From an uncultured Enterobacteriaceae bacterium (GTDB lineage Bacteria; Pseudomonadota; Gammaproteobacteria; Burkholderiales; SG8-39): a DNA stretch of 64,000 nt. Below are positions 3,073 to 62,354 of the stretch, piece after piece. The position numbers and the translations under genes are program-made. How positions within the stretch are numbered: position 1 is the first letter of the stretch; each line of letters starts with the position of its first letter. A model generated the notes under the pieces. That model was given only the letters and a program-made list of their open reading frames with translations. It did no database searches and was not told the DNA's origin. Where the stretch lies: assembly GCA_964400745.1 (NCBI GenBank), contig CAYNVY010000003.1, positions 865 to 64,864 on the forward strand, in the 5' to 3' direction.

Positions 3073-3088
3073 GGGCTCTCCAAGAAAA

Positions 3089-3104
3089 CTGTATATCCAT
3101 ACAG
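3089..3104. promoter_or_regulatory. LexA (SOS) box CTGTATATCCATACAG upstream of imuA
   Basis: Perfect CTGT-N8-ACAG. It shares the flanking context AAAACTGTATAT...TACAGTATCC with the box at 1261-1276. Confidence 0.8.
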
Positions 3105-3131
3105 TATCCAGAGCTTTAGCCGTTTTGTCTA
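3103..3131 (-). promoter_or_regulatory. Predicted sigma70 promoter of imuA (-35 TAGACA, 17-nt spacer, -10 GATACT overlapping the LexA box)
   Basis: Minus-strand reading TAGACA (3131-3126), 17 nt, GATACT (3108-3103). Confidence 0.5.
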
Positions 3132-9314: not shown

Positions 9315-10799
9315 TCAGTCGCGCGCAAGCGCGTCGCCCATTCGCTGCAATCGCAACCGCACGGGATGCACCGGCTCCAGCGGTGCGTACAACACCTGCA
9401 GTTCGGCGACCGCAGCGCGCAACAAGGCGGCAGCCGCTGAATCGGAAATCGTGAAGCGCCGCCAGCAGTCCGCGTCGATAACGGGAGGCTTCGCAGCCGG
9501 CTCGCACGCCGCCAGCGCCCAGGCCGCGCGAGTCGCGGGCGCATCCCGGTACGCCTGCTCCATCAACTGATTGCTCTGGTCTTTGGGCAGCCAGAGTTCG
9601 GCGCGCGCCAATCGCAGGATGTCAGCGCGAAGTTCGATCGAGCGCAAGGCCGGATAGAGCCCGAGCGCCTCTTCGGGCCGCTCGGCGACGGAAATGCTGC
9701 CGATCACGGCTTTGACGATGCGCGGAATAAACGCCGGATCGGCATTGGGCAGCTCGCTGGCCAGTTTTTTGAAGGTGCCGGGAAAATTCCTGTCCGGCAG
9801 ATACAGCCAGACGCTGGCTCGGGGAGTTTGCGCGCCTGCTTCGGGAACGAGATACATCATCGCTCCGCCGTTTGCCTTCCGGCGCTCGCCGGACAGGGCG
9901 ACCGTGCGGGTGTCCTCGCCCACTTTCGCAACCAGCTCGACCGGCGCGCCGCCTTCGCTATCGAGCGCAATCGACACCGTCAACGCATGACCCGCAAGGT
10001 CCTGCCCGGCGAAATCCATCCACATCCGCCCATCGGCGACGCGGACCCGTAGGCTGTCTTCCGGCTTTGCGTCGGCCCCCCGCGGCACCAGGGGCACGAG
10101 GCGGACTCGCTCCAGCGCAGACTCTAGAGACAGCGCATTGCCCACCGCGATCGGGCCTTGCGCCAGGGCAGGAAATCCCCATTCGCGCCGCTCGCGCGCA
10201 TAGGCCGCACACTCGGCCGCAGTGGGGTTGGTTGCGCATTCCCCGTGCCGGCTTCGGGCGACCAGCGCATCCACGGCGAGCCGGGCTAGCGTGTCGGCGG
10301 AGTCGACGTCGAAGCCCTTGATCTGCAGTCGTTCAGGTTCGATCCAGGCTCTGTTTCGCAGAAAGTCCGCCAGGCGCTTGCGCACCGGGTGATCGCCGCC
10401 GGTAATCGCGCTGCTCGCCTTGGCCGCCACCAGGCGTCCTCTGAGGTCGTAGTCGATGTTTGCCCTAATCGACAGGGTGCGCGCGAGAGGCCATCGTTCC
10501 CCCTTGTCGCAGTTCAATTCCAGTATGCCTTTCGGTTTGCCGTCGGCTGGGGCTGCCTGGGGCAGGATGCAAACGTAGCCGTCCTTCTCGAGGAATTCGA
10601 CGACGGATTCTGCCTTCATGCCGTGATAGGCCCAACGATCGATGCCGGCATAGCCTGGGCTATGGGTTCCGGTATAGAACGCAATGGCAGGATCGACCCC
10701 TGGGGGCAAACTGCCGCTACCGACAAGACTCAGGTCGAGCAACGCCGTCAGCAACGCCGCGACGACCAGGACGATGGCACCCGCGCGCCGCCAACTCAT
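9315..10799 (-). CDS. Hypothetical protein with an N-terminal signal-anchor
   Basis: 494 aa. MSWRRAGAIVLVVAALLTALLDLSLV is hydrophobic. The ATG overlaps the upstream stop (ATGA at 10796-10799). No recognisable catalytic motif. Confidence 0.6.
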   Translation of the reverse strand: MSWRRAGAIVLVVAALLTALLDLSLVGSGSLPPGVDPAIAFYTGTHSPGYAGIDRWAYHGMKAESVVEFLEKDGYVCILPQAAPADGKPKGILELNCDKGERWPLARTLSIRANIDYDLRGRLVAAKASSAITGGDHPVRKRLADFLRNRAWIEPERLQIKGFDVDSADTLARLAVDALVARSRHGECATNPTAAECAAYARERREWGFPALAQGPIAVGNALSLESALERVRLVPLVPRGADAKPEDSLRVRVADGRMWMDFAGQDLAGHALTVSIALDSEGGAPVELVAKVGEDTRTVALSGERRKANGGAMMYLVPEAGAQTPRASVWLYLPDRNFPGTFKKLASELPNADPAFIPRIVKAVIGSISVAERPEEALGLYPALRSIELRADILRLARAELWLPKDQSNQLMEQAYRDAPATRAAWALAACEPAAKPPVIDADCWRRFTISDSAAAALLRAAVAELQVLYAPLEPVHPVRLRLQRMGDALARD

Positions 10800-31000: not shown

Positions 31001-31554
31001 CCCAGGCGGTCGATCTGAATACCGCGCTGGAAACACTAGAGGCCGCTATCCGCCGCATCGACCGCGAAACGCGAGAGATGCTGCAGCAGACCTTCGACAC
31101 GGTGAACGGGCATTTCGGTCAATTGTTTCCCAGCCTGTTCGGCGGGGGGGAAGCGCGCCTGCTCATGACGGGCGAGGAGATTCTCGACGCGGGGGTGCAG
31201 GTGATCGCACAACCGCCGGGCAAGAAGACTTCCACCATCCACCTGCTTTCGGGCGGCGAGAAGGCGCTCACCGCGCTGGCGCTGGTGTTTTCCATGTTCC
31301 AGCTCAATCCGGCACCGTTCTGCCTGCTGGACGAGGTGGACGCGCCGCTGGACGACTCGAACACTGAGCGCTTCTGCGATCTGGTGAAGCGCATGTCGGC
31401 CGAAACCCAGTTCCTCTACATCAGCCACAACAAGATCACCATGGAGATGGCGGCGCAGCTGGTCGGCGTGACCATGCAGGAGTCCGGCGTGTCGCGCGTG
31501 GTCGCGGTCGACATCGAGGAAGCGCTGCGGCTGAAGGAGGATCTGGCCGCATGA
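28039..31554 (+). CDS. smc: Chromosome partition protein Smc
   Basis: 1171 aa, GTG start. Walker [10 protein letters not shown], long coiled coils, C-terminal [13 protein letters not shown] and Walker [12 protein letters not shown]. Confidence 0.95.
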
Positions 31555-31689
31555 GCCTAGGAGCAGGGGCCACGCGAAGCGGGGATGCGACCCGGGCGAA
31601 TGCGGCCGGACGCCGACAGTACGGTTTTTGTATAGCGTTATTCGCACGGAGGCGGTGCGCATGAGCACGGACGCAAGGAGGCGGCGCCA

Positions 31690-31695
<6 letters not shown>
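31549..31695 (+). repeat. Intergenic cassette copy A (smc/zipA spacer), homologous to 62237-62354; contains a GNA-triloop hairpin (31570-31584) and a duplicated SD+ATGAGC module
   Basis: Shared blocks CATGAGC, GGAGCAGGGGCC, GGGGATGCGACC, GCCGACAGT and (A/C)GGAGGCGG.GCG..ATGAGC. About 56 of 72 core positions are identical by hand alignment. Confidence 0.85.
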
Positions 31696-60430: not shown

Positions 60431-62242
60431 ATGACTGAAACACCGGACCCGGTTGCGCAGGTCGTTTCGGCAACCATCGCCCGCTATCGGGAAAATCCGC
60501 ACTATATCCTGCAGATGCTGCGCGAAATCCAGGAAGCATGCGACTGGATCTCTCCCGAGGCGATCGATCGCCTGCAGAGCGAACTGCGCCTGCCGCGGAC
60601 AAAGATCGAAGGCGTAGCCGGATTCTATGCGTTCCTGTACTCCCAGCCGCGCGGCCGCTACCGCGTCCTGTTCAGCGACAATATTACCGATCGCATGCTG
60701 GGTAATATGGAACTGCTCGACTACATGTGCGAACAGCTTTGGGTAGAGCGCGGCAAGACCTCGGAGGACGGCCTGGTGAGCATCGATACCGCCTCCTGCA
60801 CCGGCATGTGCGACCAGGGGCCTGCATTGCTGGTGAACAACTACGCCATCACCCGTATGACACGCAGCCGGGTGGATGAAATCTGCGAACTGATCCGCGG
60901 CAAAGTTCCGCTTGCCGCCTGGCCGGCCGACTATTTCCGTGTGGAAGACCAGGTGGTGCGCAAAGACATTCTGCTCGCCAGCGAGCTCGCGCCCGGAGTT
61001 GCGCTTGCCGCGGGGCTCGCCCGCGGGCCTGAGGCGCTGCTGGGCGAGGTCAAGGCGTCGAACCTGCGCGGCCGCGGCGGCGCGGGCTTTGGCACCGGGC
61101 TGAAATGGGAGGCCTGCCGCAACGCCCAGGGCAAGGTGCGCTACGTCGTCTGCAACGCCGACGAAGGCGAACCCGGCACGTTCAAGGACCGCGTGCTGCT
61201 TACGTCCCACGCGGACGCGGTGTTCGAGGGCATGACGCTGTGCGCGCTGGTTACCGGGGCGAAGCGGGGCATACTCTACCTGCGCGGTGAATATCGCTAC
61301 CTGCTCGACCGCCTCGCCGCCGTTCTGGCGCGCAGGCGGCAAGGCGGACTGCTGGGCGAATGCATACTGGGGCGGGCCGGCTTCGGCTTCGATATCGAAA
61401 TCCATCTGGGGGCCGGCGCCTACATCTGCGGCGAAGAGTCGGCACTGATCGAATCGCTGGAAGGCAAGCGCGGAACGCCGCGCAACCGCCCGCCGTTTCC
61501 CGTTACGCACGGATATCTGGGCCAGCCGACGGTGGTAAACAATGTCGAAACCTTCGCCGCGTCCTGTCTGATCGCCGAGCGCGGCGGCGCCTGGTACGCA
61601 GGCATCGGCACCGCTGCTTCGGCCGGCACCAAGATTCTAAGCGTCTCCGGCGACTGCGCCCGGCCGGGGCTGTACGAGTATCCGTTCGGGGTAAGCGTAA
61701 GCGAGGTACTCCAAGCCTGCGGCGCAGCCGATGCGCAGGCGGTACAGGTGAGCGGGCCGTCGGGCATCTGCGTTTGCGCGGCGGAGTTCGATCGGCGCAT
61801 CGCCTTCGAAGATCTGCCGACGGCCGGCGCGTTCATGGTATTCAACGGCAGCCGGGACATGTTCGAGGTCGCGCGGAATTTCGTTCATTTCTTCGCGCAC
61901 GAGAGCTGCGGTTTTTGCACTCCGTGCAGGGTGGGCACATCGCTGCTGAAGAAACTCATGGACAAGCTCAACAACGGCCACGGTTCGCCCTACGATCTGG
62001 CCGAGATCGAGAAGTTGAACCGTCTCCTGCAGTCCATGAGCCACTGCGGGCTGGGCCATTCGGCGTGCAATCCGGTGCTCGATACCATCGCCAAGTTCCG
62101 CCCTGCGTACGACAAGCGCCTGCAGCACAAGGAGTTTGAGCCTGCATTCGACCTGGACCGGGCCTTGCGAAAAGCGCGGCAGATGACCGGGCGCGACGAT
62201 GCCGGTGCGCACTTCGCCGCCGACTCGGGGAGGGCGACATGA
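60431..62242 (+). CDS. hoxF: NAD-reducing [NiFe] hydrogenase diaphorase subunit HoxF (NuoE-like plus NuoF-like fusion)
   Basis: Trimmed to ATG 60431. GRGGAGFGTGLKWE, VVCNADEGEPGTFKDRVLL and ESCGFCTPCRVG. Collinear with Ralstonia-type soluble hydrogenase HoxF. Confidence 0.9.
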   Translation: MTETPDPVAQVVSATIARYRENPHYILQMLREIQEACDWISPEAIDRLQSELRLPRTKIEGVAGFYAFLYSQPRGRYRVLFSDNITDRMLGNMELLDYMCEQLWVERGKTSEDGLVSIDTASCTGMCDQGPALLVNNYAITRMTRSRVDEICELIRGKVPLAAWPADYFRVEDQVVRKDILLASELAPGVALAAGLARGPEALLGEVKASNLRGRGGAGFGTGLKWEACRNAQGKVRYVVCNADEGEPGTFKDRVLLTSHADAVFEGMTLCALVTGAKRGILYLRGEYRYLLDRLAAVLARRRQGGLLGECILGRAGFGFDIEIHLGAGAYICGEESALIESLEGKRGTPRNRPPFPVTHGYLGQPTVVNNVETFAASCLIAERGGAWYAGIGTAASAGTKILSVSGDCARPGLYEYPFGVSVSEVLQACGAADAQAVQVSGPSGICVCAAEFDRRIAFEDLPTAGAFMVFNGSRDMFEVARNFVHFFAHESCGFCTPCRVGTSLLKKLMDKLNNGHGSPYDLAEIEKLNRLLQSMSHCGLGHSACNPVLDTIAKFRPAYDKRLQHKEFEPAFDLDRALRKARQMTGRDDAGAHFAADSGRAT

Positions 62243-62354
62243 GCAGGGAGCAGGGGCCCCATGTAATGGGGATGCGACCGACCGCGATTGGCGCCGACCG
62301 CCGACAGTGGCTGCGCTGGAGTTGTAACAAGGGAACGGAGGCGGCGAAATGAGC
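62237..62354 (+). repeat. Intergenic cassette copy B (hoxF/hoxU spacer), homologous to 31549-31695; hairpin CCCCAT-GTA-ATGGGG at 62257-62271
   Basis: Same ordered blocks as copy A. The whole spacer is one 37-codon ORF (62239-62352) joined to both neighbours by ATGA overlaps. Confidence 0.85.

Follow-up and report, generated by a model that had tools for sequence, protein, structure and literature searches.

Two copies of a hairpin-bearing cassette lie in the window studied here (the whole 64-kb stretch, 64,000 nt of contig CAYNVY010000003.1 read on the forward strand), copy A between smc and zipA and copy B between hoxF and hoxU, and the question was what this hairpin is and why its arms differ between the copies in a compensatory way. 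The initial annotation of the window took it for an RNA, or single-stranded DNA, structure selected between co-transcribed genes. Comparison with loci elsewhere, which are given L-numbers and are mostly stretches of metagenomes or metagenome-assembled genomes (MAGs), showed that the hairpin is real and is the variable stem (P3) of the conserved folded core of a repeat family, and not a signal peculiar to the hoxF-hoxU and smc-zipA transcripts. Each of the window copies is a 110-nt insertion placed exactly in an ATGA overlap of a stop and a start codon. A covariance model run over the 64 kb with filters off recovered exactly two copies (E values of 5e-10 and 1.2e-8; next best, 0.32), and the two cassettes shared 75% overall identity across an alignment of about 114 nt. 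Both sit between co-directional genes, as first annotated, and the names given to the flanking genes also held (SMC, ZipA and LigA; a NuoE/NuoF-type HoxF, then a HoxU-type Fe-S protein).

The insertions were identified by comparing empty with filled sites. Among 80 metagenome loci encoding near relatives of HoxU, most hoxF/hoxU junctions (L121, L124-L127 and others) had the sequence ...GGGGAGGGGGC-ATGAGC-GCGAGC, in which the TGA of hoxF overlaps the ATG of hoxU. Only 3 of about 80 loci (the window, L122 and L123) were filled, by 110 extra nt with ATGAGC on either side. At smc/zipA, L206 was empty and had the sequence ...GAGGAGCTGGCCGC-ATGAGC-GAGCTG, in which the TGA of smc overlaps the ATG of zipA; L205 had a 25-nt spacer without the unit, L207 a single 110-nt unit, and L204 and the window the unit and 25-29 further nt. 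Similar units were found at unrelated junctions, before genes that resembled def, hypD and a gene for an Fe-S subunit by their N-termini. Cores lay between called genes, and the junction subfamily touched only stop and start codons. The inserted units and the direct repeats of copy B were as follows.

31551..31660, + strand: inserted unit of copy A, 110 nt, after smc (empty in L206; filled in L207, L204 and the window)
62239..62348, + strand: inserted unit of copy B, 110 nt, hoxF to hoxU (from empty versus filled loci)
62239..62244, + strand: left direct repeat of copy B, ATGAGC; its ATG is the start of the 37-codon open reading frame (ORF) described below as the relay ORF, and its TGA (62240-62242) is the hoxF stop
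62349..62354, + strand: right direct repeat of copy B, ATGAGC; its ATG is the hoxU start and its TGA (62350-62352) is the relay-ORF stop

Units resident at the same junction in different loci had no indels and were 81-89% (hox) and 85-92% (zipA) identical, as against 62-75% and 64-82%, respectively, at the third codon positions of the flanking genes; the units are therefore constrained, or homogenised against other copies. Their hairpins differed by compensatory changes at both junctions, being CCCCAT-GTA-ATGGGG, CCCCAT-GCA-ATGGGG and CCCCGC-TAC-GCGGGG between hoxF and hoxU, and CCaCGC-GAA-GCGgGG (window), CCCCGC-GAA-GCGGGG (L204) and CCCGGC-GAA-GCCGGG (L207) between smc and zipA. Here, a natural insertion into a 4-nt stop/start overlap, the tightest type of gene junction, was tolerated and then conserved.

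In both window copies the hairpin and the two invariant half-sites of the core were located where the initial annotation had placed them, and the pairing was as it had described, with five pairs, one A.G mismatch and a GAA loop in copy A, and six pairs and a GTA loop in copy B.

31560..31569, + strand: copy A, core 5' half, GGAGCAGGGG
31570..31584, + strand: copy A, hairpin P3, CCaCGC-GAA-GCGgGG (CCACGCGAAGCGGGG)
31585..31592, + strand: copy A, core 3' half, ATGCGACC
62247..62256, + strand: copy B, core 5' half, GGAGCAGGGG; GGAGCA pairs with UGCGAC, including the tandem G.A, and GGGG is a bulge
62257..62271, + strand: copy B, hairpin P3, the reported feature, CCCCAT-GTA-ATGGGG (CCCCATGTAATGGGG), from covariation
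62272..62279, + strand: copy B, core 3' half, ATGCGACC

The apex had been regarded as the sole block that differs wholesale between the copies; this was incorrect, as about 30 nt running from GCCGAC to GGAGG (31618-31646 and 62306-62335) and the core-side linkers differ too. When public genomes, one per species, were scanned with the pattern GGAGCAGGGG-N7-20-GGGATGCGACC, the core was found in at least 119 loci, and covariance model R1 gave about 190 copies in the loci collected. Among the matches listed, nearly all labels of the carrier MAGs were Betaproteobacteria, Burkholderiales, Thiobacillus, Casimicrobiaceae, Sulfuricella or Nitrosomonadales, several MAGs gave 3-5 loci each, and 145 core instances reduced to 101 distinct hairpins. 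The base of the P3 stem was CCCC/GGGG, beyond which came 0-6 more pairs of free sequence (GC 44 and AT 27 at stem position 5; CG 38, TA 11, AT 9 and GC 5 at position 6, in the 101 distinct hairpins), and the core with P3 measured 29-41 nt. The mean stem was 5.58 pairs long, as against 4.29 (maximum 4.53) after 500 shuffles of the inner bases. Compensatory change, first noticed between two copies, exceeded chance by far across these 101 hairpins, and the further copies kept their pairing while stem sequence, length and loop varied. In the hairpin stems, 22 G.U stood against 6 A.C, which indicated that the fold is of this strand and not of its complement. The G-N-A triloop stressed in the initial annotation is present in both window copies and was the commonest triloop (34 of 64), but as a family feature it is enriched and optional; the loops of the 145 instances were CTTG (17), GCA (16), GAA (9), TTT (8), TTTA (7), GTA (7) and many others.

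One further match in the window, on the minus strand at 9537-9561 with 2 mismatches, GGAGCAGGCG-TACC-GGGATGCGCCC, resembles a core without the hairpin. As a third copy it was rejected, being a chance match that lies in apparent coding sequence and has a model score at noise level. Apart from the family, the window also holds a 45-nt direct repeat at 1257-1301 and 3085-3129 (78% identical), each copy of which contains a CTGT-N8-ACAG palindrome (CTGTATATATGTACAG and CTGTATATCCATACAG); the arrangement resembles paired LexA/SOS boxes.

The hairpin is part of a larger fold. RNAalifold applied to 23 window-type 110-nt units gave a closing helix P1, a variable helix P2, the GCA/UGC core helix, P3 and, as a second domain, P4, in which ..GCCGAC is paired with GGAGGCGG. 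Around the core, the base three positions 5' of it pairs with the first base 3' of it in 88% of copies and the next outward pair holds in 76%; further out lie an internal loop of G-N-A facing G-N-A and a variable helix. In the structure adopted here for the 23 units, 91.6% of the cells were paired, as against 83.7% in shuffled controls and 29-54% when partners were slid, and in P1, P3 and P4 of the 110-nt units, 13 of 26 pairs showed double changes (5.0 expected; 0 of 500 shuffles reached 13). In 123 core sequences, the corresponding values were 87.6, 75.4 and 34-44%, which upheld the earlier claim of selection for pairing within a single strand; here 9 of 17 pairs showed double changes, as against 8.1 in shuffles, and 68 of 500 shuffles reached 9. 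Invariance of the core helix reflects ascertainment by the search pattern. A variant subfamily with the core GGAAGAGGGG...GGGGATCTGACC had AGA/UCU in place of GCA/UGC, with both changed pairs compensated, and P4 also covaried, being GGCC/GGCC in one subfamily and CGCC/GGCG in another. Three modules of the form N-GA-GC / GC-GA-N' recurred in the fold (ATGAGC with GCGAAT, GGAGCA with TGCGAC, and GCCGAC with GGAGGC); N-GA-GC facing GC-GA-N' is the classical context of tandem sheared G.A pairs.

31545..31552, + strand: copy A, P1 5' strand, GGCCGCAT, host sequence (end of smc), present in the empty site L206
31596..31607, + strand: copy A, GCGA, then P1 3' strand, ATGCGGCC (the single-sequence minimum free energy structure gives the same fold, z = -3.08)
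62233..62240, + strand: copy B, P1 5' strand, GGCGACAT, host sequence (last hoxF codons), already in the empty site L126
62284..62295, + strand: copy B, GCGA (tandem G.A partner of TGAGC), then P1 3' strand, TTGGCGCC
62298..62305, + strand: copy B, P4 5' strand, CCGCCGAC, covarying with GGAGGCGG
62337..62346, + strand: copy B, GGAGGCGGCG, P4 3' strand and Shine-Dalgarno sequence, 7 nt before the hoxU ATG

Single-sequence folding of the plus strand reproduced this model, at -58.6 kcal/mol for copy A and at -45.3 kcal/mol (z = -0.58, ordinary for its composition) for copy B. The minus strands folded worse by about 10-14 kcal/mol (copy A, -45.0; copy B, -35.0). Searches with Rfam 15 gave nothing at gathering score in the window, only noise up to E 10 around either copy, and no relevant match in 8 related loci. 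Neither copy A nor copy B had an intrinsic terminator (a GC-rich hairpin with a T/U run), the hairpin being followed by ATGCGACC, and neither had a promoter consensus.

Helix P1 joins the unit to its host. Its 5' strand comes from the host and consists of the 8 nt that immediately precede the GA of the stop codon (GGCCGCAT in smc and GGCGACAT in hoxF). These 8-mers predate the insertions, as the empty sites L206 and L126, respectively, also have them. The internal 3' strand is complementary to this flank (ATGCGGCC; TTGTCGCC in L123), and in 36 distinct units P1 pairing was better with the units' own partners than with permuted ones in each of 5000 trials. The unit always lies directly after ...(A/G)TGA, with 8 internal nt paired to the 8 nt upstream, in a geometry unlike that of IS608, and its 3' end (..GGCGNCATGA) resembles the same upstream flank. 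Three readings of the complementarity may be considered: target choice by base pairing, integration via a short homology common to all SD-N7-ATGA junctions (SD, Shine-Dalgarno), and adaptation following insertion. In a doubtful but consequential version of the first, the 110-nt units would be guide-directed mobile elements, in which a segment of about 8 nt 3' of the core picks the last codons of genes ending in ATGA and every insertion rebuilds the stop/start relay. If this were true, one guide would serve both junctions, the unit's 3' end having the same sequence, and the element would be a programmable, operon-safe parasite with a mechanism undescribed for repetitive extragenic palindromes (REPs), miniature inverted-repeat transposable elements (MITEs) or insertion sequence (IS) elements; more generally, complementarity that reflects target choice would represent a new way in which small bacterial repeats are targeted.

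Either window copy is also an ORF of 37 codons, whose ATG overlaps the upstream TGA and whose TGA overlaps the next ATG.

31551..31664, + strand: copy A, relay ORF, 37 codons; the core is read in another frame than in copy B
62239..62352, + strand: copy B, relay ORF, 37 codons, MSREQGPHVMGMRPTAIGADRRQWLRWSCNKGTEAAK, without a Pfam family
31661..31693, + strand: copy A, 29-nt partial repeat of the unit's 3' end; a 10-codon mini-ORF with an ATGA overlap at either end; zipA start at 31690

The frame was open in all 16 ATG-type units collected (37-38 codons, 41 in one outlier), and in 15 of the 16 its end was an (A/G)TGA overlapping the start codon that follows. Within the unconserved variable region of 22-25 nt, none of the 16 units had a stop codon in the ORF frame, as against 6 units in each of the two other frames. 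Tandem arrays of the GTG/GCG type and antisense copies had no such ORF. In the predicted fold, P4 includes the GGAGG located 7 nt ahead of the downstream start codon, so that the Shine-Dalgarno sequence would be sequestered. The unit would thus supply a stop for the upstream gene, an open 37-codon frame, a P4-paired Shine-Dalgarno sequence and a new ATGA overlap; ribosomes finishing the upstream gene would be handed through the insert to the downstream gene, while P4 would keep the downstream start closed to free ribosomes. Such a relay, a plausible RNA-level role for the junction subfamily, could make the insertion tolerable and later constrain the unit. Translational coupling, one of the roles proposed in the initial annotation, gains indirect support from the ATGA-to-ATGA frame and the predicted pairing of the Shine-Dalgarno sequence, and this manner of tolerance makes termination-reinitiation coupling directly testable with few mutations. 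At copy A the path would run through smc, ORF37, ORF10 and zipA; where copy A has ORF10, L204 has another filler, of 25 nt.

Could the peptide itself be what is maintained? A small protein gene, with a 37-residue product and a hairpin incidental to coding, would account for the conserved length, start and stop of the ORF, and gene callers do predict it, currently annotating junction copies as 37-residue 'hypothetical proteins' or as fused repeat proteins of 65-89 residues. A phmmer search of 1.8 billion cluster representatives returned matching peptides of 36-38 aa (e.g., MSREQGPRFAGMRPSAIGAGRRQ...), but only 17 matches in all, each a translation of the same repeat; public calls were few, and some were in-frame fusions of two units. 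Some double units in metagenomes were called as fused in-frame proteins of 65-89 aa in P0004, P0008, P0011, P0013 and P0015. Pfam held no family for the peptide. The two window copies read the same invariant core nucleotides in different frames (REQGP..GMRP and LGAGA..GDAT), the C-terminal half had no conserved residues except those encoded by the Shine-Dalgarno region, the hairpin codons were free to vary while pairing was retained, and the tandem-array and antisense copies dispensed with the ORF. No amino-acid conservation in a single frame was found beyond that of the nucleotides. What is conserved is not the peptide sequence, and a small protein gene is very improbable, even though a copy in a cultured host, Ralstonia sp. 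RRA.1, has an ORF of equal length with its own Shine-Dalgarno sequence.

This Ralstonia copy was the single, divergent one found in a search of a plasmid collection. It lies at 1501-1620 of L201 (replicon NZ_CP146092, about 609.85 kb), reads AGTAAGCAGGGG / CCCCGC-ACA-GCGGGG / ATGCGCAC with a divergent core, has its Shine-Dalgarno sequence 13 nt past the upstream stop, and holds an intact 37-codon frame that ends in ATGA on the next gene. Repeat-bearing contigs also occurred in MAGs named Klebsiella pneumoniae, Enterobacteriaceae, Streptomycetaceae and Bordetella parapertussis (L018, L053, L059, L067, L086, L087, L088 and L113), and these bins are probably mislabelled or contaminated.

The disposition of copies relative to genes separated the junction subfamily from the rest of the family. 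Junction units were nearly always sense to the upstream gene and began at its stop codon, whereas in the other subfamilies about 33 copies lay on the same strand as the upstream gene and about 24 on the opposite strand. An inverted partner sequence lay within 130 nt of 41 copies, about 22 loci carried inverted core doublets (+ and -) 30-90 nt apart, and tandem arrays had periods of 107-136 nt and up to 4 units; the window copies were singlets. The occurrence of the core in both gene orientations and in inverted doublets indicated that the core, hairpin included, is not solely an mRNA signal and, together with the tandem arrays, that the family is a REP/REPIN-like (REPIN, REP doublet forming hairpin), non-autonomous interspersed repeat, mostly of uncultured soil and groundwater Betaproteobacteria. 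The initial reading as an intercistronic RNA signal was thus borne out as to a selected structure between co-directional genes, but the structure belongs to a widespread inserted repeat whose core is found in both orientations. The family is apparently undescribed, with no match in Rfam and no match to its sequence in the literature among the matches listed: a text search with the core 10-mers and their reverse complements returned, among those matches, only unrelated primers and human sequences, and no comparable element turned up when keywords on repeats at stop codons or at coupled junctions were searched. It can now be recognised by the invariant GGAGCAGGGG-hairpin-GGGGATGCGACC core and by the covariance model built here.

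Among the clustered copies, head-to-tail arrays of 3-4 units were seen at L050 (3172-3553), L013, L051 and L064, with periods of 114, 136 and 108 nt. The variant core GGAAGAGGGG...GGGGATCTGACC stood inverted beside a standard core in L003 (6685-6943), L022, L025, L037, L048 and L085, and such variant/standard clusters reached three or four alternating copies, resembling bacterial interspersed mosaic elements (BIMEs).

Since the conserved core lies in both orientations relative to genes, we lean, with moderate confidence, towards an account in which the core acts first as a single-strand recognition structure for the element's own propagation, with a plausible RNA-level relay as an addition in the junction subfamily. 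The core forms, on one strand, the short helix GGAGCA/UGCGAC with tandem sheared G.A pairs, a GGGG bulge and a stem-loop of free sequence and length, closed by the variable helices P2 and P1. The apex of P3 would need only to pair, and would hold the invariant half-sites at a fixed geometry for a sequence-specific partner, most likely the protein responsible for copying or moving the element on single-stranded DNA. Several observations weigh against this account. The flanking direct repeats ranged from 3 to 16 nt between copies, which argues against a fixed target-site duplication; nor did the unit have the features of a MITE, its ends being direct rather than inverted repeats of this variable length. 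The window holds only 2 copies in 64 kb. Outside the junction subfamily, GC skew was positive for 41 copies and negative for 36, and this lack of replication-strand bias argues against replication coupling in the style of IS200/IS605. All-against-all clustering of 684 flanking ORFs from the 119 loci revealed no recurrent transposase beside the cores, the only recurring products being common transporters and ABC proteins. A REP-associated tyrosine transposase (RAYT) was absent from the window and the element-carrying loci searched (by motif search and by tblastn with E. coli RayT), and no Y1 (TnpA) gene was found in the same sequences. With a RAYT from Chromobacterium pChV1 as the query, 7960 homologues were obtained at E below 1e-10, betaproteobacterial RAYTs being about 75% identical across genera; all three loci that were read (Sulfuricella, Thiobacillus and Pseudomonadota MAGs) were flanked by another REP, GTAGGGCGCAAT...ATTGCGCC, and no R1 match lay within 6 kb of the three RAYT genes, a weak test, as carriage of the element by those genomes was not established. 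The GTAGGGCGCAAT-type REPs, unrelated to the core, were at L209 5930-5981 and 6528-6579, L211 5915-5977 and 6535-6600, and L212 5879-5970. An integron attC site was also considered and was dropped, as no conserved GTTRRRY/RYYYAAC boxes were seen by eye in the unit alignment.

These RAYT results bear most directly on the proposal that the family is a true REP/REPIN mobilised by a RAYT, which would recognise the hairpin and cleave beside the conserved head. The short extragenic palindrome, the inverted doublets and clusters, the GGAGC...GCGA(C) head and tail and the CTTG loops would suit it, the last two fitting the REPs of Pseudomonas and Xanthomonas; lacking the GT[AG]G head, with no RAYT found in the window or the carrier loci and with a different REP and no core copy recognised by the covariance model beside the three betaproteobacterial RAYTs, it is improbable. 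The account that competes most with ours is a host-serving intercistronic RNA, in which P1 would hold the stop codon and P4 the Shine-Dalgarno sequence for strict coupling or transcript protection, with spread being secondary. It explains equally well that junction units are nearly always sense and start at the upstream stop codon, and that resident orthologues are conserved above the synonymous rate, without indels and with compensatory P3 changes at both junctions; the conserved open frame, the covariation of P4 with the Shine-Dalgarno sequence and the better fold of the plus strand (-45.3 versus -35.0 kcal/mol in B and -58.6 versus -45.0 in A) likewise agree with it. The same core with its hairpin is kept, however, in subfamilies antisense to both neighbours and in inverted doublets, most near relatives do without the unit at these junctions, Rfam has no matching family, and the fold energy of copy B is ordinary, so that we consider this reading possible and clearly less probable than propagation. 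Decay of a functionless insertion would call only on templated correction, which in a quasi-palindrome can give compensatory changes without selection (a point that also weighs against our own account), and on chance pairing in GC-rich sequence, and the unremarkable fold energy of copy B would fit it. The half-sites, however, are invariant over at least 119 loci in many lineages, covariation extends to P1 and P4, which are not local palindromes, and diverged orthologues have no indels and a frame that is still open; such decay is highly unlikely. We retain single-strand recognition in propagation as the preferred reading of the core, with the relay as a plausible addition at junctions.

The closest resemblance in form is to the RAYT-REPs of Pseudomonas and Xanthomonas, which have a GGAGC head, a GCGA(C) tail and a gCTTGc loop, e.g., GTAGGAGCGCACCTGGGCGCGAC and GTGGGAGGGGGCTTGCCCCCGAT (PMC2817692, Table 1). 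Like these REPs (GT[AG]G-GAGC-stem-loop-stem-GCGA[AC]), the core, 29-41 nt with P3 where REPs have about 20-40 nt, is a short extragenic imperfect palindrome with a GGAGC head and a GCGA(C) tail able to form tandem G.A pairs that close a GC-rich stem, and gCTTGc is its commonest loop; like REPINs and BIMEs, the family has singlets, inverted doublets and clusters. In contrast, its head is GGAGC without GT[AG]G, the bases directly upstream being variable, and its stem is broken by the GGGG bulge and an extra hairpin that varies even inside one genome, whereas the core is invariant across many lineages, unlike classical species-specific REPs. No cognate RAYT was found for the core, the betaproteobacterial RAYTs examined having another REP, and the 110-nt subfamily is tied to stop/start overlaps and bears an ORF. 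Because it has no GT[AG]G head and a RAYT link was not found in the loci searched, we file the family as REP-like in form.

The elements of the IS200/IS605 family (such as IS608) and their miniature derivatives, the palindrome-associated transposable elements (PATEs), studied by Ton-Hoang, Guynet, Dyda and colleagues, transpose as single strands; their end hairpins are recognised, and a short guide within the element base-pairs to the site of cleavage or to the target. As in IS200/IS605, the hairpin of the present element is strand-specific, terminal inverted repeats are absent, the element always lies directly 3' of a defined sequence (...ATGA), and an internal segment complements the sequence immediately 5' of the element. 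It differs in having one hairpin core instead of two subterminal hairpins, a complementary segment of about 8 nt that lies 3' of the hairpin, direct repeats flanking the unit, no family-wide replication-strand bias, and no TnpA found.

Two stable G.A motifs also recur in the element. The d(GCGAAGC) mini-hairpin has a G-N-A loop, and the duplex d(ATGAGCGAAT)2 contains tandem sheared G.A pairs; the apex of copy A is literally GCGAAGC, 34 of the 64 triloops of the family are G-N-A, and the P1/P2 junction is literally ATGAGC paired with GCGAAT. Unlike genetic elements, these are physical motifs, and they form in both RNA and DNA, so that the likeness fits a fold of either nucleic acid.

Rickettsia palindromic elements (RPEs) are small palindromic repeats that survive in frame within reading frames. 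In E. coli, REPs within about 15 nt of a stop codon reportedly affect translation termination, according to Liang, Rudd and Deutscher in 2015. The present unit is, like both, a small palindromic repeat at the end of a reading frame. We know of no description of a comparable relay arrangement for RPEs or E. coli REPs. Unlike them, the unit lies between two genes, replaces their 4-nt overlap, and brings its own start codon, stop codon and Shine-Dalgarno sequence.

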